64,000 nt of DNA from IMG/VR virus record IMGVR_UViG_2926471356_000005, positions 16,798 through 80,797 of that record; one strand, given 5' to 3'. Both the position numbers and the translations under genes were made by a program. Positions 3,107 to 31,519 of the stretch are shown in pieces (the stretch's first letter is position 1; the number at the start of each line of letters is the position of its first letter). Under the pieces are notes generated by a model. That model worked only from the letters and a program-made list of their open reading frames with translations. It did not search any database and was not told the origin of the DNA. This DNA is from a virus (Duplodnaviria; Caudoviricetes).

Positions 3107-4792
3107 TTAACACGGTCTTTTGAACACCTCAACCTTCGCTCCTACCAGTCCACGCAGTTCATTCTCAAGCAGAGAAAGAGAGTCTGGTGCGTCATCGTGC
3201 GGCACTTTACCAGACCGGGTGTAGGTTGTAACCTGCTTCATAAACATGGCATACTGACTGTTCCGTGCATAGAGTGACGGGTCTTTGAAGTAAAAGTGCT
3301 TGATTATATTATCAGAAGCAAACTCAATACGGGTCTGCTTATTACTAATAGTCCTCTTCGTTCGAATATTACAGACATACTTTCGGTCGATCAAAATCTG
3401 CTGTACATCCCTGGCAAAATATGTACCTGCATTATTCGACTCAAAGGTTCCTGCCACCACAAGATTGTCCATCAGAGCCTTTGCACACTCTGGCTTCGTA
3501 ACCTCTGGCGGGGAGTCATCGAACACTACATCCACTATGTAGACCTCATCTCCGTACACCGCAGCAATCGGCATAGAACAATAGTCAGCACCCTTGTCCG
3601 CAGTATCGCAGACGGCAATAATACTGTCTGGCTCACGGTCTACAGGGAGTTCAAAGTATCGGTTCAAGGACGCTTCCGGGAAAAGAATGCCCTTCGCTTC
3701 AAACGGCTGCTGCTGAAACTCAGACTCAAACTGCTCTGCCGAAAGCATTTCTCTCTGGTCACGGAAATACTGCGTGGTGAAAACCTTCCTACCCTCACGA
3801 ATGTATTCAAAGTTACTCTCATCCGTTACAGGGTCAAGAGCCGGGGTTTCAATAATCTTGCACCGCTTACCCTGCTTCTGCATTTCCTCCTGCAAATGAC
3901 CGATAGGGTCATACAGTGAATATCGTGTACCGCAGATAACGATAGGCGTACCCTCAATGGCACGTCCTATAATATCACCAGAAATGACCTCCCACTTATC
4001 ATCAAGCCGCTGTCTATTTTTCGCTTCTTCACGTCCTTCAACGCAGTCATCCAGGTAGAGAAGGTTAGTTGCTTCCGAAAGACCTACCTGCCGTGCGTCA
4101 ATAGAACGGCACATGACCGTAGGGAATCGGGACTTATGCAGAAGGTTGATGACTTTCGTATCGGCATTGGTCTGTACCAGTTTGCTCTCCGGGAAAATAT
4201 CATAAAAATGATAATCGTTCGGCTGCTGAATGTACTCAAGACAACCTTTATAGAAAGACTGAACAAGATCATCACCTGTACCCTCCATCAGCGTAGAGCG
4301 GTCTGGGAACTTTCCAGAAAGCATATTCGTAAAGTTAATACCAAGCTGAGACTTGCCACATCGTTTCGGCATGGAGATGGACAAGAAGTCCAGTTTTCCC
4401 TCAAGAACTTCCTGGTATCCTTCCACATACCGTCTAAGGTAATGACGGCGAGGAAGATAGAACTTCTTGTCAAGCGGCTTACCGTACTCTACCGCCTGTA
4501 AGTATGCGTCAAAATAGTGGGGCGCACAAAACAGCAAGGAACGAAACAGCAGATTGTCAAATTCCTCTGCCGTCTTGAAATCTCTGGTATCTACTGCCAG
4601 TTTCAGTCCTGCTCTGATTTCCTCCTGCAAAGCCTGGTTCCATTCGTGAGCCAGTCGGAACTCTGTCCCCTCATAATCACGGCACAGCGCGAACTTATCA
4701 TCATAGGCTGCAACATCAAGCGGACTCTTTAGGATAGCCCGGTCAATGCTACTTTTCATCTTACTATAATCCATACATACCTCCGTAAACAA
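3107..4792 (-). CDS. terL: Terminase large subunit
   Basis: Walker A MPKRCGKS, Walker B LLYLDD, motif III GTRY, C-terminal nuclease HDDAPDS. Confidence 0.93.
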   Translation of the reverse strand: MFTEVCMDYSKMKSSIDRAILKSPLDVAAYDDKFALCRDYEGTEFRLAHEWNQALQEEIRAGLKLAVDTRDFKTAEEFDNLLFRSLLFCAPHYFDAYLQAVEYGKPLDKKFYLPRRHYLRRYVEGYQEVLEGKLDFLSISMPKRCGKSQLGINFTNMLSGKFPDRSTLMEGTGDDLVQSFYKGCLEYIQQPNDYHFYDIFPESKLVQTNADTKVINLLHKSRFPTVMCRSIDARQVGLSEATNLLYLDDCVEGREEAKNRQRLDDKWEVISGDIIGRAIEGTPIVICGTRYSLYDPIGHLQEEMQKQGKRCKIIETPALDPVTDESNFEYIREGRKVFTTQYFRDQREMLSAEQFESEFQQQPFEAKGILFPEASLNRYFELPVDREPDSIIAVCDTADKGADYCSMPIAAVYGDEVYIVDVVFDDSPPEVTKPECAKALMDNLVVAGTFESNNAGTYFARDVQQILIDRKYVCNIRTKRTISNKQTRIEFASDNIIKHFYFKDPSLYARNSQYAMFMKQVTTYTRSGKVPHDDAPDSLSLLENELRGLVGAKVEVFKRPC

Positions 4793-4824
4793 AAAATGGA
4801 ACCGTCAATTAAGACAGTCCCATT
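4790..4824 (-). terminator. Intrinsic terminator directly upstream of terL
   Basis: ATGGGACTGTC-TTAATT-GACGGTTCCAT then TTTTTG on the minus strand. Confidence 0.7.
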
Positions 4825-4840
4825 GGACAAAAACCGCAAC

Positions 4841-4993
4841 TTACTTGCAGTTATATATTAACTTAAAAGGCAGGCTCAAGCACCATACCACAGGTCTGAT
4901 TACAATGTTCCAGGTGACCCATGCACAAAGCCAGAAAAAGGATTTAATGCACCACCACAGGAACCACAGACAGCAGAACAAAATATAGAACAT
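4841..4993 (-). CDS. 50-aa Trp/Cys-rich hydrophobic peptide (not in ORF track)
   Basis: MFYILFCCLWFLWWCIKSFFWLCAWVTWNIVIRPVVWCLSLPFKLIYNCK; AAAGGATGGT RBS-like sequence upstream. Confidence 0.55.
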   Translation of the reverse strand: MFYILFCCLWFLWWCIKSFFWLCAWVTWNIVIRPVVWCLSLPFKLIYNCK

Positions 4994-5018: not shown

Positions 5019-5107
5019 TGGTAGGGTAAATCAGAAAATCTGTATAAGTTTTCTTAGTAGAGTCTTTACTATAAAAACTTAGTGAAAAACTCGATTTTAC
5101 CCTACCA
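5019..5107. repeat. 89-bp imperfect palindrome, copy A
   Basis: Outer arms TGGTAGGGTAAA...TTTACCCTACCA; inner arms TAAGTTTTCTTAGTA...TACTATAAAAACTTA; reverse complement aligns ungapped to 8627-8715. Confidence 0.9.
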
Positions 5108-5348
5108 TGTCTGTCTGACCAACCTCATATCCACCTTCGGGGGTAGGCGTTTCATCGGGAACAACCACGATTTTATATCCCATAACGCTCAACATATTAC
5201 CCAGTTTTGCGACTGTAGTGTTATCGCTCTTCTTTGGATTCAGTCTATCCCAGAGAGCCGCCTGCGTAATTCCAAGGGTCTTTGCCATCTCAGCATTCGT
5301 TATATCATGCTCTACCATCAGAGTCTTAATCAGTTCTTTTGAAGTCAT
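5097..5348 (-). CDS. XRE/Cro-like HTH regulator
   Basis: ITNAEMAKTLGITQAALWDRLN HTH; GGAGG RBS. Confidence 0.85.
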   Translation of the reverse strand: MTSKELIKTLMVEHDITNAEMAKTLGITQAALWDRLNPKKSDNTTVAKLGNMLSVMGYKIVVVPDETPTPEGGYEVGQTDMVG

Positions 5349-5371
5349 ACGTTTTCCTCCTGTTCAAGATA

Positions 5372-5412
5372 AGGATAGCATTAAAGTTTTATCTTGTCAA
5401 GTTATATCTTGA
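5372..5412 (-). promoter_or_regulatory. Promoter of HTH gene with two palindromic operators
   Basis: TTGACA (5395-5400)-17 nt-TGn-TATCCT (5372-5377); T(C/A)AAG-N6-CTTG(A/T) at 5382-5397 and 5397-5412. Confidence 0.8.
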
Positions 5413-5562
5413 TTCTTTTTTATTTTTGCGGGATTTTCCAGGCTCACCCACCCAGGCTGCCTGGGGTCTGTATCCCCCGCCGGGGGTCTGTCCCTGGGAT
5501 GATCTGGACAGCCTGCACCACAGGCAGAACGGCGGGACGTGGTGAAAAAGTTTAAAAGCTTT

Positions 5563-5623
5563 TCAAGAAATATCTTGACAATAAAGATATATCTTGATAT
5601 ACTTGCATCAAGATAAAACTTGA
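5563..5623 (+). promoter_or_regulatory. Near-consensus extended -10 promoter with three operators
   Basis: TTGACA 5575-5580, 17 nt, TGn-TATACT 5598-5603; operators at 5563-5578, 5582-5597, 5608-5623. Confidence 0.85.
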
Positions 5624-5685
5624 TAAACAAGTTTGAAATCACAGCCGCCCGCCAGGGCAGCACCAACAAATTGGAGGTTAATATT

Positions 5686-6078
5686 ATGTATGATTATTTA
5701 GAGCATGTGATCGCAGACGTTAAGGACTATGTAGAAGAAGAAATTGACTTGACAGAATGGGCAGGTAACCGGGACGGATTAGAAGAAGAATTAAACGATG
5801 ATCTTTGGACGTGCGACAGCGTCACGGGCAACGCTTCCGGGTCTTACTATTATAACGCCTGGAAAGCTGAGGAAGCATTAGCGCACAATTGGGATTTATT
5901 AGCGGAAGCCCTGGAAGAGTTCGGACAGGACGGAACGGACGTATTAAGAGAAGGCGCGGAAGCTATGGACGTAACAATTAGATGTTATCTGTTAGGGCAG
6001 GCTGTAGCCGCTGTACTTGATGACCTGGAAGAAGATGGAGCGTTTGAAGAAGAGGAAGAAGAGGAAGAAGAGAACTAA
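5686..6078 (+). CDS. Highly acidic protein, candidate Ocr-like DNA mimic
   Basis: 130 aa from ATG 5686 (GGAGG RBS); by hand count about 41 D/E versus 5 K/R; poly-E tail. Confidence 0.65.
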   Translation: MYDYLEHVIADVKDYVEEEIDLTEWAGNRDGLEEELNDDLWTCDSVTGNASGSYYYNAWKAEEALAHNWDLLAEALEEFGQDGTDVLREGAEAMDVTIRCYLLGQAVAAVLDDLEEDGAFEEEEEEEEEN

Positions 6079-6215
6079 TAAACACGTTGCGCCGTGTATA
6101 AATAGCCAGTTAAGGCGCAAGCGTCCCGGCACTTTGCCGGGGGTCTGGAAAGTGTAGGCTTTCAAACCTGCACCACAGAAAAAGAACCGATAAATAGCAA
6201 AATGCACAAAGGAGG

Positions 6216-6494
6216 GTGCAAGCTGGGATGAAATACGATAATTGCAAAATGACGGACAACGAAAACACTGTATATAATTATTTTAATACGGTTATTGTCA
6301 ACGGGTGGACGTGGCAACGTCTAACCCCGGAAGAGCGGGAACGCTTCAAAACTTGCGTTGATTTTAGCAGAATTAAAGGAAACGCAAGGCAGCGGGTCGA
6401 AGTGCTTAATATGCTTTATAGTGCATTCTTGCACGGTATAGGCTACAAGCCTATAGGGTGGAGAGAATCAGACCCCGAAGCCCCAAATTTTTAA
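6216..6494 (+). CDS. Hypothetical protein
   Basis: ORF preceded by AAGGAGG, same strand as neighbours; start uncertain (6228 or 6249). Confidence 0.7.
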   Translation: MQAGMKYDNCKMTDNENTVYNYFNTVIVNGWTWQRLTPEERERFKTCVDFSRIKGNARQRVEVLNMLYSAFLHGIGYKPIGWRESDPEAPNF

Positions 6495-6515
6495 CAGAAA
6501 GAAGGTTATAAAGCT

Positions 6516-6785
6516 ATGACTAAATTAGATCGCTTGTTTTTACGTCTTGAAAAAGACGGCTTTACCGTCAAAAAAAGTGAGCTTTGCAATATTGATTGTA
6601 CAGGGCTCAACGCCCCGGTTTTAATTATTGATACCAATTATGAAGGGCTGTACCCGCCTAAATCGGTATTCGATAAACTGGGAATGATCAGGCATATTTG
6701 TAAAAACCGTTTTTCAGTGCAGGCACGCGGCTATTATACAGCCGTATTTATTCGCGAATGGTTACCCGATGAAAAGCACTTATAA
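6516..6785 (+). CDS. Hypothetical protein
   Basis: 89 aa, GAAGG RBS, operon position. Confidence 0.7.
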   Translation: MTKLDRLFLRLEKDGFTVKKSELCNIDCTGLNAPVLIIDTNYEGLYPPKSVFDKLGMIRHICKNRFSVQARGYYTAVFIREWLPDEKHL

Positions 6786-6835
6786 AACAGCCCCGCCGCC
6801 GTGCGGGGTATTCTTATATAAGGAGGCGTAAAACA

Positions 6836-7570
6836 TTGTTTAGAAAGACCTGGGAAACACCACAGGGGCACTATTATAACCTGTATGCCGATATGCTACA
6901 ACAACCGCATTTACTTGTAGCGGGGGCAACGGGTAGCGGAAAAAGCGTGATCATAAACGGCATAATAACAACGGCATTAAAGGACAGCCCCGCCGCCGTG
7001 CAATTTATATTTATAGACCCTAAACGGGTTGAACTTGTAGACTTTAGACCGTTGCCGCATACGCTTAATTATGCAAGTGAACCGGGGGGCATGGTACAGG
7101 CTTTACAGCTTGCCATAGATACCACAGAACGCCGCTATAAAGAAATGCAACGGCAACACCTTAAACAATACCCGGGTGGGGCGGTATACGTTGTTATAGA
7201 TGAGCTTGCGGACTTAATGACCACAGCCCGCCGCCAGGTGCAGCCGCTTATACAACGCCTTGCGCAAATAGGCAGAGCCGCAAACGTCCACGTTATAGCC
7301 GCCACACAATGCCCATTATCCGCTGTCATCCCTACCCCGATAAAAGTAAACTTTGATAGCCGGATAGGACTTAGAACCCGTAGCAGGCAGGACAGCCGCA
7401 ATATTTTAGGCGTTCCCGGTTGTGAGTGCCTGCCCCGTTACGGACAGGGGTATTATATGACCCCGGCAGGCTTGACGCTGTACAATATACCCATGTACAG
7501 CCCCGCCGAGGTACAGCGGCTTATAAACTATTGGAAGCACCACAGCCGCCCTAACTTGCGTTGGTTATAA
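6836..7570 (+). CDS. Stand-alone FtsK/SpoIIIE motor-domain ATPase
   Basis: HLLVAGATGSGKS, IDPKRVEL, VVIDELADL, LAQIGRAANVHVIAATQ; no TM or gamma domain; AAGGAGG RBS. Confidence 0.9.
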   Translation: MFRKTWETPQGHYYNLYADMLQQPHLLVAGATGSGKSVIINGIITTALKDSPAAVQFIFIDPKRVELVDFRPLPHTLNYASEPGGMVQALQLAIDTTERRYKEMQRQHLKQYPGGAVYVVIDELADLMTTARRQVQPLIQRLAQIGRAANVHVIAATQCPLSAVIPTPIKVNFDSRIGLRTRSRQDSRNILGVPGCECLPRYGQGYYMTPAGLTLYNIPMYSPAEVQRLINYWKHHSRPNLRWL

Positions 7571-7578
7571 CGCACGAA

Positions 7579-7614
7579 ATCCCGGACAGGTTCACAGCCT
7601 GCCGGGGTTCTTTT
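7579..7614 (+). terminator. Terminator ending the + strand cassette
   Basis: ATCCCGG...CAGG...CCTGCCGGGGT hairpin then TCTTTT. Confidence 0.6.
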
Positions 7615-7876
7615 ATGTCTATTTATATGCCCTCACAGCCCCACAGAGCCGCCCAGGACGGGCGCAAGCCATGCGGGGCTATACACTTATACTATAACAG
7701 GATAAAAAGCCGTCAAAAGGGCGCAGAGCGTCCACGGCAGCACCCCGGGCGGCGGGTGGTCTGTCCCTGTCCCACGCCTTGAACGCATGGTAAACCCCCG
7801 CAGCCTGGGCGGGTGGGTCTGCCGCAGGGTAGGCAGCAGGCGGGCAGGGGTTGCCGCTCTTCTGCGACTTTTGAAA

Positions 7877-8542
7877 TTAGTCTTTCTGCCCTTCTGCCCC
7901 TTCTGGGCTTTCTGTGATTTCTGTAAAAGTCCCTTCTGCGACTTCTGAGCCGTCATAGGCACTTTCAAGATATTTCTGCTCAAGGGCTTTCATGTCCTTC
8001 TGCTCTCCAAGAGGATTGTTCGGGGTAAGTACCATTTCTGTCTGATCTTTCATGCCGTCATAGTTCTTCTGCCAGAAGATACCAGTGACGGGGTTTACCT
8101 TGCCGTCCTGCATAAGACCTTCGCGAAAAACGCCGCAAAACTGGCGAACTTTTTTGATAAAGTCAGCGCGGGCGGGGTTCCCCTTCGTGACATTCTCCCA
8201 CTCCCATGCCTGTTCCTTCGTGATACCAATAGCCATATACGCAGCCTGGTTGCCTACCTTCATATCCCACTCAGAACACTTCTGCACATAATTCAAGAAC
8301 CGTCTTTCCATTTCTGGCACATCCTGCAAGTCCAGAGGTTCCTTCGGCATGATCTCCATCATAAAGGCAGTCACTTTCGCATTGTACCCTTCTGGCATTT
8401 CTATCTTCTGAGCCTGCATAATAGGACTGTTCTCCCTGGCTTTCACCAGATTCTTAGGACTGCTTTCTTGATACCCTTCTGTTCTTCTGGGCTTTCTGTC
8501 CCGGCTTCCCTTCGGTCTGCCCATCTTCTTTTCTTCTGCCAT
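7877..8542 (-). CDS. terS: Terminase small subunit (putative)
   Basis: GRPKG N-terminus; GKVNPVTGIFWQKNYDGMKDQTE motif typical of TerS; AGGAGG RBS; upstream of terL. Confidence 0.75.
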   Translation of the reverse strand: MAEEKKMGRPKGSRDRKPRRTEGYQESSPKNLVKARENSPIMQAQKIEMPEGYNAKVTAFMMEIMPKEPLDLQDVPEMERRFLNYVQKCSEWDMKVGNQAAYMAIGITKEQAWEWENVTKGNPARADFIKKVRQFCGVFREGLMQDGKVNPVTGIFWQKNYDGMKDQTEMVLTPNNPLGEQKDMKALEQKYLESAYDGSEVAEGTFTEITESPEGAEGQKD

Positions 8543-8626
8543 TGTCCTTCTGCACCTCCTTCTGCTCACGCTTCCATCTTTCTACATAAGACTCCATGTT
8601 TGTCTCCTTTCTGTCGGACATGAGGT

Positions 8627-8715
8627 TGGTAGGGCAAATTCAATTTTTACAGTAAGTTTTTATAGATACGCGCGTACTAAGAAAACTTATAGTAAAATCT
8701 TATTTTACCCTACCA
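8627..8715. repeat. 89-bp imperfect palindrome, copy B (candidate replication origin)
   Basis: TGGTAGGGCAAA...TTTACCCTACCA immediately after the helicase stop codon; inverted homolog of 5019-5107. Confidence 0.9.
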
Positions 8716-8721
8716 ACCCTA

Positions 8722-10200
8722 CTAATTTTGCCTTAAAGCTACTCCATAATAGAACAAAACGCCCTGGGTAACTGCCTTATCTGCATACCATTCCGGGTGT
8801 GCTGTCAGTTCTGCATTGAATTTCTTCATGCTGCACACATAATACCCATTGCCCTTGCACCACATTTTGTAGTTATCATAGAGGGACTTCGCACGGGTCT
8901 TACCTTCTGCATTCCGCTCACACTTCTCTTCCAGGAATTGCTGTACCAGGTCATTGTCCTTTTCATACTGCTTAATGACCTTCTGCATACCCTGGGACAT
9001 TTTCAGCCCGAAGCGGATATACTTGAAGTAGCCTGCTACCAACCATGTGAATATACCCCGCATTGCTTCTGGGGTTTCAAAGTAGTCCTTGAGTCCCTTG
9101 TCCTGTTCGTCATCGTTGAAGTGGCGGTTGAACTCAATCACTCGCACACGGTCAGATGCAAACAGGCTCTTGTCCTTTACGGACGGCAGGTCATTACAGG
9201 ACAACCACATGGTAAACTGCGGCTTGAAGGTAATTGCAGACTGGTAAAGTTCACGGGCGGTAATGTCCTCACCACCTGTGTACTGTTTAATCGTGGCTTC
9301 GTCCAGTTTGCCTGCGGTATCTGACTCACTCATGGTGACCATGCGCTTACCTTTCAGCTTTGCCAGTACCGGGTTCGCTGCTTCTGCGTTCTTCTGGCGG
9401 TCACCACGGCAGATAAGTTCCACAGGAGCCACGGTTGAGTAGTCACCAAGCAAGTGCTGAATAGCGTCAAGCATGGTACTTTTACCGTTGCGGGTGGTCT
9501 TACCGTGGAGGATGAACATACATTCTTCCTTGCTTGTACCTAAGATTGAATAACCCAAAGCCCTCTGCAAGTAGTCTGCCTTGTCCGCTTCGTTCTGGGT
9601 AACTTCCTTGATGAACTGTTCCCATCGTGGGCAGGTAACTTCCTGCAAGGTGTATTCAAAATTGGTCTGCATGGTCAAGAAATCATCCCATCTATGCTCA
9701 CGGAACTTCATGTGTTCCAGGTCATAAGTACCGTTCAGACAGTTAATCAGATAAGGGTGAGTGTCAAACTGTGCTGCCGCAATCTTCATGCTGTCCGCAG
9801 CGTCCTTCATAAGACGGTCACGGAAACGGCGGTCACCCATCTTTCCAACAAAAGCCATGTACTGCTTGCGCTTTTCCTCATCGGTGATTTCTCCGCAGTA
9901 CAAAGCCATGAGTCGCACAAACTCCTTAATCTTTGCAGAAACCAGAAGCGCACCCACATCCTTGTGCCACTTGCCAGTTTCATATGTGTACCAGGACTTT
10001 GCTTCTGGGCAGTAGCGGGTGTCATTCTGATAGCACTCAGAGAAGAGGTCAGCCATGCCCGCTTCATCCCAGGAGTACCCCGTGGAATCATCCTGGTAGG
10101 CGGTTTCCGGGTGGTGGTCTTTAATGTAATACAGCTTTCTGCTTATGTCCTCAGAGGTAATGTACCTGCCATTGGACAACTGAAATAACTCATCACTCAC
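8722..10200 (-). CDS. P4/D5-family SF3 helicase (primase-associated)
   Basis: D5_N region (LINCLNGTYDL), Walker A GKTTRNGKST, IKQYTGGEDITARELY. Confidence 0.92.
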   Translation of the reverse strand: MSDELFQLSNGRYITSEDISRKLYYIKDHHPETAYQDDSTGYSWDEAGMADLFSECYQNDTRYCPEAKSWYTYETGKWHKDVGALLVSAKIKEFVRLMALYCGEITDEEKRKQYMAFVGKMGDRRFRDRLMKDAADSMKIAAAQFDTHPYLINCLNGTYDLEHMKFREHRWDDFLTMQTNFEYTLQEVTCPRWEQFIKEVTQNEADKADYLQRALGYSILGTSKEECMFILHGKTTRNGKSTMLDAIQHLLGDYSTVAPVELICRGDRQKNAEAANPVLAKLKGKRMVTMSESDTAGKLDEATIKQYTGGEDITARELYQSAITFKPQFTMWLSCNDLPSVKDKSLFASDRVRVIEFNRHFNDDEQDKGLKDYFETPEAMRGIFTWLVAGYFKYIRFGLKMSQGMQKVIKQYEKDNDLVQQFLEEKCERNAEGKTRAKSLYDNYKMWCKGNGYYVCSMKKFNAELTAHPEWYADKAVTQGVLFYYGVALRQN

Positions 10201-15969: not shown

Positions 15970-16975
15970 TATTTTGTCCTCTCTTTCTCTTCGTTCTTCC
16001 GTTTCTGAACGTATTCTCTGAACATTCTGGTATATTCGTAACTGTCTTTGAATACATGAGAAACGGCTTTGAGCATTTTAGGTTCATGCTCTTCGATTAT
16101 GCTCAATTCATCCAGTAATTTTCGATTGAACGGACAACCTACACACCCCGTTCGGGTCATACCGTACTTTGTATAGCAATCGCTGTGCTGAATGCCGAAA
16201 AGTTCATCATAGTAAACTTCGTCTTTATCGCTATACCAAAATAACGGTCTGTACTGGTCGCATTCATCTTCTCTTGCTGTAAAGCAGGTTTTGTAGCTTG
16301 CAGACCTTATACCTTTTTCAGCTTTTCTGACTCCAATAATCATAAGGTCTATGTAGTTGTCCTTTATAAATTGAGCAGAAACTTCTTTCTTAGCATAAGT
16401 GCAGCACTTACTTGAAATTTTGAACCACGGGGGATTCTCAATCATAAATTCTTTCAGATACTTATGATAGTTAATGTTGAACATTGAGGTTTTGAAACCC
16501 GGTTTGTTTCTGCCATTACACCACCAATTTATTGCTCCCTGTGCTTTTGGGTATTCAGCCAATAGCTGCTCTACGGGTTTATCCTCCCATGTGAAGCCAT
16601 GGCGTTGTAGCCGGGAAATCATATCTGATACAAACTTTGATAAGAAAGGTTGCCCGTATTCACTACACGAAAGAGGGATAGGCTTGATTGCTTTGATTCT
16701 TTCGATTTCAATATGATATTTCTCTTCAAGGTATTTCAGATGGTCTTTGGTTGCCTGGTACTCTAACCCAGTGTCGAACCAGATATATCTAACCTTTCGG
16801 TCTTTATCAATCTTTGAAATCAAATCAAGCATTATATCACTATCCTTCCCCCCCCCGATATAGAGCAAGCTATGCTGTCATAACGGGAAAGAACGGAATG
16901 TGCTTTTGCTACAGAATCAAAGATTGCAAAATTGCCATCTGCCTTTTCTAAAAGTTTCTGTACTTCCAAGTCCAC
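15969..16975 (-). pseudogene. PAPS-reductase-family protein, frameshifted at a G9 tract
   Basis: GTG 16975 with AGGAGG RBS reads ...ACSISGG; G9 at 16848-16856 shifts frame before KDS; downstream DTGLEY, CC...KK, RTGCVGCPF. Confidence 0.85.
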
Positions 16976-31042: not shown

Positions 31043-31519
31043 AGAAAATCCCCCTTTCTTTCGCAAACATATAATACAGTCTATGAATAGCAGCAAGTCC
31101 ACTATTCAATAAAACAAAGGCTTTAATCGGACGGTTATTAGCATAACCTCATGGGAATTTCACCCCGGCATGGTTCTCATGCAGCCCTACCCATTGCCTG
31201 CGACGCTCTTAACGCTCGGACTGTGGCTGTAAGGAAGTATCATTGTATATTCTGCGTGTCGTCGCCCGCAAGCCGCTACACTTGCTTTCCGGCGCGGTGT
31301 TGGTCGCTCGGCTGTCCGGGCGGGGATAACCTCACCCGGATAGCGTCATGGCGCACCCGCCGTATGGCTCGGCGCAAAAGGAACGTATCCGATTTGCCCT
31401 ATGCTGCGCCGCCGTTATCTTGCGCCGCTTTCTTTGTCAAGGTTCAGAATGGCTTTGCTGCCGCGTCAGCAGCGGAACGGAAAAGGGGGAGAGAGAAAGC
31501 GTCCCGCCGCCGCTGCGGT

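Follow-up and report, generated by a model that had tools for sequence, protein, structure and literature searches.

The stretch between the genes for the small and the large terminase subunit (terS and terL) of a gut prophage is, with a probability of about 0.65, a phage-owned accessory operon typical of its lineage, which is controlled by a repressor, cut by a self-cleaving ribozyme and read against the late genes. The prophage is carried by the window analyzed here, 64,000 nucleotides (nt) of the IMG/VR record IMGVR_UViG_2926471356_000005 (positions 16,798 to 80,797), which lies on contig C2 of a 2.5-Mb genome. A promoter-like site of the sigma-70 type, close to consensus, leads into a first gene slot; repeats extend over this site and over the promoter-like site of a divergent helix-turn-helix (HTH) gene. 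Behind slot 1 follow a pistol ribozyme, a second slot, a fixed FtsK-type ATPase and a conserved terminator. Relatives retain this frame and swap both the slot genes and the class of the ribozyme.

Results and Discussion

Related loci were gathered from IMG/VR via terL (80 loci, 69–99% identity). For the comparison of complete cassettes, the open reading frames (ORFs) were clustered in 50 intervals, the window counted in. The order primase, terS, FtsK-like gene on the opposite strand, variable genes, terL and portal was found by tblastn throughout the related loci. Where 3.6 kb or more of DNA preceding terL was present (53 loci), the FtsK-like gene was found in 50, always opposite to terL and with 40–88% identity; the three loci lacking it are the most distant ones (terL 69–75%). 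All 50 complete cassettes share a fixed plan with a first block behind the promoter, a second block and the FtsK-like gene in last place. The first block is occupied by the acidic protein family in 14 cassettes, by a family of 125–140 amino acids (aa) termed c4 in 16 and by a pair of 125 and 81 aa in 8. For the second block, a 96–125-aa family was found in 18 cassettes, the gene o88 in four and o89 in the window only.

The first-block families proved unrelated in hhalign comparisons of the acidic family with c4 and c8, and an AF2 model of c4 (pLDDT 80.8) gave no informative fold match. Searches of Pfam, PHROG and NCBIfam revealed no family for the slot proteins of the relatives. The window's own o88 and o89 remained without a family match in Pfam, PHROG, PADLOC and NCBIfam, and the ESM Atlas gave no usable match for o89. 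Exchange of cargo was also observed in assembled Logan contigs from public sequencing runs (24 listed; X1, X2, X6 and X12 aligned to the region). These swap out the segment 6210–6789/6822, that is, from behind the ribozyme to just ahead of the FtsK-like gene. An earlier note on this DNA, made from the sequence alone, had proposed to look for variable cargo in a conserved frame among relatives. Both were found: 50 of 53 loci retain the FtsK-like gene, whereas its small upstream neighbors are swapped. Since the frame is fixed and the cargo variable, the cassette is not a simple moron.

The pistol ribozyme is the single Rfam match at E ≤ 1 between 4700 and 8900. Its start lies 4 nt past the stop codon of slot 1, the acidic gene, and 79 bases separate its end from the next start codon. 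Self-cleavage presumably takes place at the G–U step, which would correspond to 6143/6144 of the window. Our own covariance model, built from 11 pistol copies and run on the 80 related loci, revealed pistol in 40 of them, with every copy inside the cassette on the strand of the FtsK-like gene. In the alignment of the 11 copies, P1 is either ACAC/GTGT or ACCC/GGGT, and the P3 stem of locus L024 is wholly replaced and still paired (judged by eye, without a formal count). A further 19 loci lacking pistol were searched in the permissive mode of Rfam, yielding matches to twister-P1 in nine, to hammerhead type II in one (36 bits vs. a cut-off of 37) and nothing in nine. Altogether, 39 of the 50 complete cassettes, window included (38 of 49 relatives), have a ribozyme where the first block meets the remaining genes, and pistol there mostly begins within a few nt of the stop codon.

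A second case was found in the same genome on contig C19 (25022–25369, locus L165), where a paralogue of o89 with 90% identity is preceded, at a distance of 31 nt, by a match to twister-P1 (49.7 bits and E 4.2e-10, which is under the gathering score). The site follows a GNAT-like ORF in a second phage-like region, which has its own terS-like gene and no FtsK-like gene. Within a single genome, this rare gene is thus found behind ribozymes of two classes, pistol at the cassette and twister-P1 on C19. As a side observation, locus L018 carries two pistol copies in one cassette (5898–5973 and 6222–6297, minus strand). The cassettes in which no ribozyme was recognized (L021, L023, L028, L030–L032, L036–L038, L060 and L068) are candidates for divergent or unknown self-cleaving motifs, and several of them retain 250–1500 nt of non-coding DNA at the usual joint.

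In the control region, two near-consensus promoter-like sites face apart, with a block of 68% GC between them (Table 1). The motif CAAG-N6-CTTG occurs 8 times in the window vs. 1.8 expected, and three of these copies are among the operator-like repeats. Relatives with different HTH types show different palindromic repeats around the TTGACA box. The shut-off by the HTH protein that was suggested in the earlier note is consistent with this design of a divergent HTH gene opposite near-consensus promoters on which CAAG-N6-CTTG repeats are superimposed. An HTH gene adjoining an operon, with inverted repeats over its promoter, also corresponds to the layout known for Aca regulators. Matches to Acr or Aca families were not obtained for the cassette with Pfam, PHROG and PADLOC, libraries that contain no Aca model, and PADLOC gave weak capH and HTH matches only (E 0.016–0.03). 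Four relatives contain an extra small HTH gene, built like that of the window, directly before palindrome B (L045 3920–4318, L075 2143–2547, L018 3388–3870 and L062 1406–2067), which mirrors the order of HTH gene and palindrome A in the window.

The acidic protein encoded in slot 1 belongs to a family of 1268 clusters at 50% identity. Its AF2 model exhibits an all-helical domain (pLDDT 95.5), for which VIA-align ranked T7 Ocr (1S7Z) first among 48,161 chains, with Z 6.8, a root-mean-square deviation of 3.7 and 100 of 106 residues aligned. A language-model search independently placed an Ocr cluster at rank 13 with a low score of 0.75. The protein has the strong negative charge of an Ocr-like mimic; no match was found in BFVD at E ≤ 0.001, nor was there any in PHROG or NCBIfam. 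Based on the model, with T7 Ocr as top fold match of the first gene, the proposal of an anti-defence cargo gains modest support.

The gene in last place encodes an ATPase with the Walker A motif GATGSGKS and the Walker B motif VVIDELAD. Comparison with the PDB yielded 2IUS and 2IUU (1e-34), matched in the later part of the motor (residues from about 288/344 on), and the best stretch of E. coli FtsK is 1136–1267. The parts that would make up a full translocase, that is, a membrane anchor, the alpha domain and the DNA-reading gamma domain, are missing, and no further Pfam domain was found. The protein belongs to a very large metagenomic family of 242–244 aa. PADLOC gave matches to its ATPase domain only, to SspH and mad8. 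In a search of genome contigs, the matches listed were swamped by host FtsK genes of at most 45% identity and are uninformative on the distribution of the gene. The terminator behind it is 92–97% identical even in distant relatives. A GC-rich 19-nt word of the ACAGCCCCGCCGCCGTGC type occurs three times, at 6787–6805 before the FtsK-like gene and at 6984–7002 and 7497–7515 inside it.

The identity of terS, a candidate assignment, rests on its position, a weak PHROG match and weak P22 gp3 matches in relatives. The gene follows the replication module and stands at the head of the packaging and morphogenesis genes, in the order primase, terS, (cassette), terL, portal that is also found in relatives. 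The Pfam family GP3_package (P22 gp3) was matched by 4 of 19 terS relatives (best 2.4e-4), the protein of the window being unmatched, and a comparison with the PDB gave no relative.

Within and around this gene, the pentamer TTCTG (plus strand) occurs in 23 copies per 754 nt, i.e., 30.5 per kb vs. 3.5 per kb, which is the top of 505 windows. On the coding strand of terS, 21 copies of CAGAA were counted vs. 3.5 ± 1.7 in codon shuffles. As none of the 2000 shuffles has as many, the enrichment is not due to codon content. All CAGAA copies in terS precede a purine, and some are spaced by 9 nt, at both ends of the gene; elsewhere in the prophage the CAGAAR motif is not polar. The enrichment reaches z ≥ 3.7 in 46 of the 50 complete cassettes, window included, with terS proteins that are mostly only 54–63% identical. 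Metagenome contigs differ by indels of 9, 15 or 24 nt within the array (window 7858–7909 and 8561), so the array grows and shrinks by repeat units. Judged from its sequence, the array looks like a protein-binding array and is a candidate pac site, in accordance with the remark in the earlier note that pac sites often lie in terS. The 47-aa ORF overlapping the start of terS in another frame could represent a separate small protein, a frameshift or a signal at the nucleotide level. In loci L023, L057 and L062 the terS frame itself is open from the region of the 47-aa ORF.

Two palindromes, A and B, bracket terS and the cassette. Their folds have z values of −5.4 to −8.0, which none of 200 shuffles matched. 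Complementarity amounts to 75% and the similarity between A and B to 78%, and no other copy exists in the 2.5-Mb genome. The core was searched by its 16-nt arm with up to 3 mismatches, counting single arms and using control DNA from the same loci. Arms were found in the primase–terS spacer of 36 of 50 loci and in the zone between the cassette (FtsK) and terL of 41 of 50, vs. 2 arms in 602,699 bases of control. Compensatory changes were observed in 10 of 13 pairs of the outer stem of B. The conserved core is surrounded by outer arms of several types (direct heptamer pairs, self-palindromic 16-mers). Since some of these outer motifs are themselves palindromic, the palindromes are more likely sites for a DNA-binding protein than RNA elements. 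Both immediately precede the ribosome-binding site of the first ORF of a unit in late direction, and they could serve the control of late transcription or recognition by the terminase. Four other assignments were rejected: plant microRNA precursors in Rfam (spurious matches to long hairpins), intrinsic terminators (no T run), sigma-70 promoters (no good hexamer pair) and partner sites of the Cre/lox type (different central parts of A and B).

The slot between palindrome A and terL, which holds only the 50-aa ORF in the window, is a second hot spot for accessory genes. In relatives it contains a Bro-N protein, a membrane-anchored Mrr-type nuclease, a lipoprotein or a serine recombinase (examples are L015 6995–7723, L024 7411–7944 and L036 6768–7571). 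The serine recombinase was found in four loci, all of them without the core of palindrome A.

A GC-rich inverted repeat around the operon, described in the earlier note, could be retained in part. Two GC-rich blocks are present (68% and 61%) and share short direct and inverted pieces, but the inverted arm comprises only 27 nt at 81% complementarity. For the right block, a structured RNA was not indicated (0 of 89 pairs covary; no Rfam family). In relatives this block contains tandem units of the CGCAGAGGGG type with many indels.

All family-supported prophage genes between 1 and 26.2 kb lie on the minus strand, in the order head genes, portal, terL, the region in question, D5-type primase/helicase, NrdD/NrdG, an Erf-like annealing protein, a RecE-like nuclease, DNA polymerase and helicase. 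The plus strand carries a cI-like gene and a serine integrase at 26.4–28.3 kb. As already noted earlier for this DNA, the cassette is thus the sole plus-strand unit besides cI and int. From terL to the primase the order is hairpin, 50-aa ORF, palindrome A, HTH gene, control region, four plus-strand ORFs, terminator, 61%-GC block, terS candidate and palindrome B. All parts of the layout given in the earlier note, from terL and palindrome A via the minus-strand HTH gene, the four plus-strand genes with FtsK and the TTCTG-rich terS to palindrome B, were recovered in their places. The coordinates are collected in Table 1. No family match was obtained for s50 in Pfam and PHROG, and none for TerL in the PDB. 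A search of phage and plasmid collections gave two short matches of 68–71% in unannotated phage records and none in plasmids. Just beyond the integrase end of the prophage, a pemK RNA motif (Rfam RF02913) is located at 31149–31246 on the minus strand (60.1 bits vs. a gathering score of 34.8).

Table 1. Features of the terS–terL region and its neighbors, in window coordinates.
Feature	Position	Strand	Evidence and remarks
terL, large terminase subunit	3107–4792	−	phrog_38, 1.9e-46; TIGR01630, 4.8e-10, just under cut-off
Terminator-like hairpin between s50 and terL	4795–4824	−	12-pair stem and T run in consensus scan
s50, 50-aa hydrophobic ORF, first ORF past palindrome A	4841–4993	−	76–96% identity in close relatives (tblastn)
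Palindrome A, 89 nt	5019–5107		Overlaps HTH stop; 26 nt before s50
HTH regulator, 83 aa, divergent from cassette	5097–5348	−	phrog_1468 repressor, 4.5e-7; HTH_37, 5e-5, under its cut-off
HTH-gene promoter-like site	5372–5400	−	TTGACA, 17 nt, TATCCT, with TG
Five operator-like 15-nt repeats (AAGTTATATCTTGAT type), family D2	5384–5624		Groups 5384–5413 and 5565–5624, covering both promoters
Left GC-rich block, 68% GC, between the two promoters	5439–5545		88–92% conserved in close relatives
Cassette promoter-like site	5575–5603	+	TTGACA, 17 nt, TATACT, with TG; 11/12
Slot-1 gene, 130-aa acidic protein, candidate Ocr-like DNA mimic	5686–6078	+	41 D+E vs. 5 K+R; isoelectric point 4.05
Pistol self-cleaving ribozyme (RF02679)	6082–6148	+	58.8 bits vs. 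gathering score 34.5; full model 1–68
Slot-2 gene o88, 88 aa	6228–6494	+	ORF; cluster 19, in 4 complete cassettes including the window
Slot-2 gene o89, 89 aa	6516–6785	+	7 homologues among 5.8 billion proteins; ribozyme-associated twice in the genome
GC hairpin just ahead of FtsK-like gene	6790–6809	+	19-nt repeat family D4
FtsK/SpoIIIE-type ATPase, 244 aa, RecA-like beta domain only	6836–7570	+	PF01580, 1.3e-32, 113.4 bits vs. cut-off 24
Terminator hairpin after FtsK-like gene	7581–7617	+	Stem kept in 11/11 aligned relatives, then TTCTTTTAT
Right GC-rich block, 61% GC, where the FtsK-like gene and terS converge	7620–7876		GC content
Polar CAGAAR array (TTCTG on plus strand), partly 9-nt periodic; pac candidate	7860–8613	−	Repeat density, conservation
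terS candidate, small terminase	7877–8542	−	ORF open to 8569; likely start 8542 or 8527 (N-termini of relatives)
Conserved 47-aa upstream ORF (MESYVERW...), overlapping terS start in other frame	8454–8597	−	Strong ribosome-binding site; start conserved in all relatives inspected
Palindrome B, 95 nt	8624–8718		Between primase stop and upstream ORF with terS
D5-type primase/helicase, last gene of replication module	8722–10200	−	D5_N, 4.5e-27; phrog_1156, 2e-91

Proposed Function and Alternatives

In the proposed accessory operon, the ribozyme would cut the transcript behind slot 1, leaving two halves that would differ in stability and translation, and the HTH protein would turn the operon off following a burst. 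Slot 1 would hold counter-defence proteins, in this phage an Ocr-like DNA mimic directed against restriction or BREX-type defences. The terS gene would bear the recognition array for packaging (CAGAAR), and packaging is probably headful from a pac site, given that terS carries this array. The palindromes, which from their sequence are probably binding sites of a phage protein, would head the two late-direction units that are split by the operon, with B before terS and A before s50 and terL.

Several points weigh against this reading. Eleven of the 50 complete cassettes have no recognized ribozyme (two of them, L031 and L038, were searched for pistol only), and the twister-P1 matches in nine loci (36.9–59.2 bits, E 9e-11 to 2.3e-4) are below the gathering score of 67.2. 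With the acidic model, Foldseek found nothing in the PDB; the Ocr family PF08684 was not matched by the protein at a Pfam E ≤ 0.01, and a PDB profile search was empty at E ≤ 1. A comparison model of an unrelated helical slot-1 protein, c4, reached Z 5.9 vs. plainly unrelated chains, so that the value of 6.8 for the acidic protein and Ocr is little above background. The Ocr likeness seen in the model is a lead at roughly even odds. The family evidence for terS is weak (phrog_606, 3.8e-5). Further, the design of the cassette fits a defence or exclusion operon expressed from the prophage equally well.

Such a unit of lysogenic conversion or defence, in which the FtsK-type ATPase would act as sensor or effector in the exclusion of other phages or of plasmids, is rather unlikely overall. 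Its opposite strand, own promoter and own terminator are typical of a moron, the ATPase domain matches the defence proteins SspH (1.8e-26) and mad8 (1.3e-24), and the slot before terL contains an Mrr-type nuclease, a lipoprotein or a Bro-N protein in relatives. However, PADLOC matched no whole defence-system model but the shared ATPase domain alone, and the ATPase comes without a sensor, nuclease or membrane part. The first gene resembles a counter-defence DNA mimic, and an autoregulating HTH protein at a strong promoter suits a control in which a burst is followed by shut-off. Hardly credible is a foreign mobile element between the terminase genes, be it a conjugative-type module, a satellite or an invertible segment, that would recombine at the palindromes as its ends. 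Neither the place nor the orientation of the cassette changes among 50 of 53 relatives, which reach down to 73% terL identity. FtsK-type ATPases do act as coupling proteins in conjugation (weak matches of TraB and TrwB type were obtained), palindromes flank the segment, its GC content is above that of the phage in places, and four relatives have a serine recombinase in the neighboring slot. Yet the A core is absent from the relatives bearing this recombinase, A and B are not alike in their central parts, and the only terS of the phage lies within the palindrome pair. Relaxase, integrase or replication genes were not found in the window segment by Pfam, PHROG and NCBIfam scans, and the source assembly revealed no alternative joints.

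The earlier note had favored a role in packaging, with a cassette that enters first, possibly as a direct terminal repeat of roughly 2.4 kb, is expressed at once and is then repressed. The corresponding model has a long repeat of about 2.4–3.5 kb, which would be bounded by the GC-rich blocks or the palindromes and be duplicated at packaging. Neither a 2.4-kb direct repeat nor 'ori-like' sites nor first entry is indicated by the assembled contigs analyzed. Early takeover genes are located in long terminal repeats in T5, SPO1 and Twort-like phages. In line with this proposal, two related, unique and conserved palindromes bracket terS and the cassette, terL gives weak matches to T7-type nuclease domains (PF22530, 0.0012; NF033889, 0.0013; both under their cut-offs), and the contigs of three relatives stop exactly where a palindrome borders, that of L014 at A and those of L035 and L057 directly behind B. 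On the other hand, the remaining contig ends in the 8 kb preceding terL fall at dispersed positions in FtsK, terS, primase and other parts, and the 95%-complete contig of L035 breaks at B and inside the primase, not at A. The five IMG/VR records looked up are linear or provirus, none with end repeats. Moreover, the GC-rich inverted repeat is merely 27 nt at 81%, and 9 of 50 relatives have no detectable A core. The weak link to P22 gp3 and the array inside terS point towards pac/headful packaging. The indirect evidence thus mostly goes against a fixed terminal repeat, which we regard as very unlikely.

A headful variant is possible, if tentative, and adds to the accessory-operon explanation rather than competing with it. 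Here, pac would lie in or next to terS and packaging would proceed towards terL, so that the cassette would be part of the terminal redundancy of the first headful of each series and stand at the entering end in only a fraction of virions. In P22 and SPP1, pac is contained in the terS gene, and in P1 it has loxP in its vicinity. The polar CAGAAR array is conserved in spite of terS proteins of mostly 54–63% identity and changes in 9-nt units, the P22 gp3 family is weakly linked, and the cassette always adjoins terS; the array could, however, serve the overlapping ORFs or another protein. A bolder extension, in which the position itself is functional, appears distinctly improbable. The pac array and the palindromes would put the operon into the redundancy of the first headful and the Ocr-like mimic would be made at once from the entering end, with the ribozyme uncoupling the burst of the mimic from a motor that would pull in or clear the genome while it enters or in early replication. 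If this were true, bacterial self-cleaving ribozymes would gain a defined job in the timing of phage counter-defence. The present evidence reveals no new packaging or terminal-repeat strategy.

Comparison with Known Systems

First-entering early regions or long terminal repeats are known from T7, T5 and SPO1. With gene 0.3 of T7 (Ocr), the cassette shares a very acidic, all-helical protein of about 115–130 aa as the first gene behind a strong host-type promoter. In contrast to T7, T5 and SPO1, the phage is temperate with an integrase, and the acidic protein stands outside the Ocr sequence family. Terminases of the P22 gp3 type are similar in the weak GP3_package link of the relatives and in the repeat array inside the terS gene, but the array described here is a many-copy polar pentamer or hexamer with a partial 9-nt period, an upstream ORF overlaps the start of terS and the gap between terS and terL amounts to 3 kb. 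The ATPase has the RecA-like beta domain and the Walker A and B motifs in common with FtsK/SpoIIIE (PDB 2IUS, 2IUT, 2IUU); it differs by the lack of the anchor, alpha and gamma (KOPS-reading) domains and is, with 244 aa, about a fifth of E. coli FtsK in size.

Anti-CRISPR operons under Aca control have a small HTH regulator and a strong promoter with inverted repeats. An HTH regulator beside such a promoter and variable small genes next to a conserved marker are found in the cassette as well. Here, however, the HTH gene is divergent and not the last gene, the marker is an ATPase and a ribozyme splits the predicted transcript.

The closest parallel is given by the ribozymes, which had been overlooked in the earlier note. 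From its sequence, the cassette belongs to a known, functionally unexplained neighborhood of ribozyme-associated phage genes, and the view that its architecture is undescribed has to be abandoned (PMC3088659, PMC4604425, PMC6765202). Perreault et al. 2011 describe hammerheads that flank single genes or short gene blocks in prophages, for which processing of long transcripts was proposed, and an anti-restriction gene, ardA, adjoining hammerheads in a prophage (PMC3088659). According to two further papers, twister, hammerhead and pistol ribozymes share gene associations, phage genes included, for a reason given there as undetermined (PMC4604425, PMC6765202). Twister, pistol and hatchet were discovered via such shared associations (Roth 2014 and Weinberg 2015, as cited in PMC6765202 and PMC4604425). 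A description of an FtsK-ending, ribozyme-cut terS–terL operon was not found in the literature searches; these families may nevertheless already figure among the genes listed by Roth 2014 and Weinberg 2015.

The clustering of bacterial pistol, twister and hammerhead ribozymes around particular phage genes has awaited an explanation since 2011–2015 (PMC6765202). The locus provides a clean test case, in which a single promoter and a single regulator are combined with a ribozyme placed exactly at the end of a candidate anti-restriction gene, and relatives with a naturally swapped ribozyme class or swapped flanking genes offer comparisons. It also brings into view a common, uncharacterized minimal FtsK-type ATPase of gut phages and a conserved array that is possibly their pac site. 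Like the described neighborhoods, the cassette has interchangeable self-cleaving classes between the genes of a phage operon, occurs in gut phages of Firmicutes and places an anti-restriction DNA mimic directly beside the ribozyme (ardA there, the Ocr-like candidate here). It differs from them in its defined set of an HTH gene, two variable slots and a fixed ATPase of the FtsK beta-domain type, located between terS and terL.

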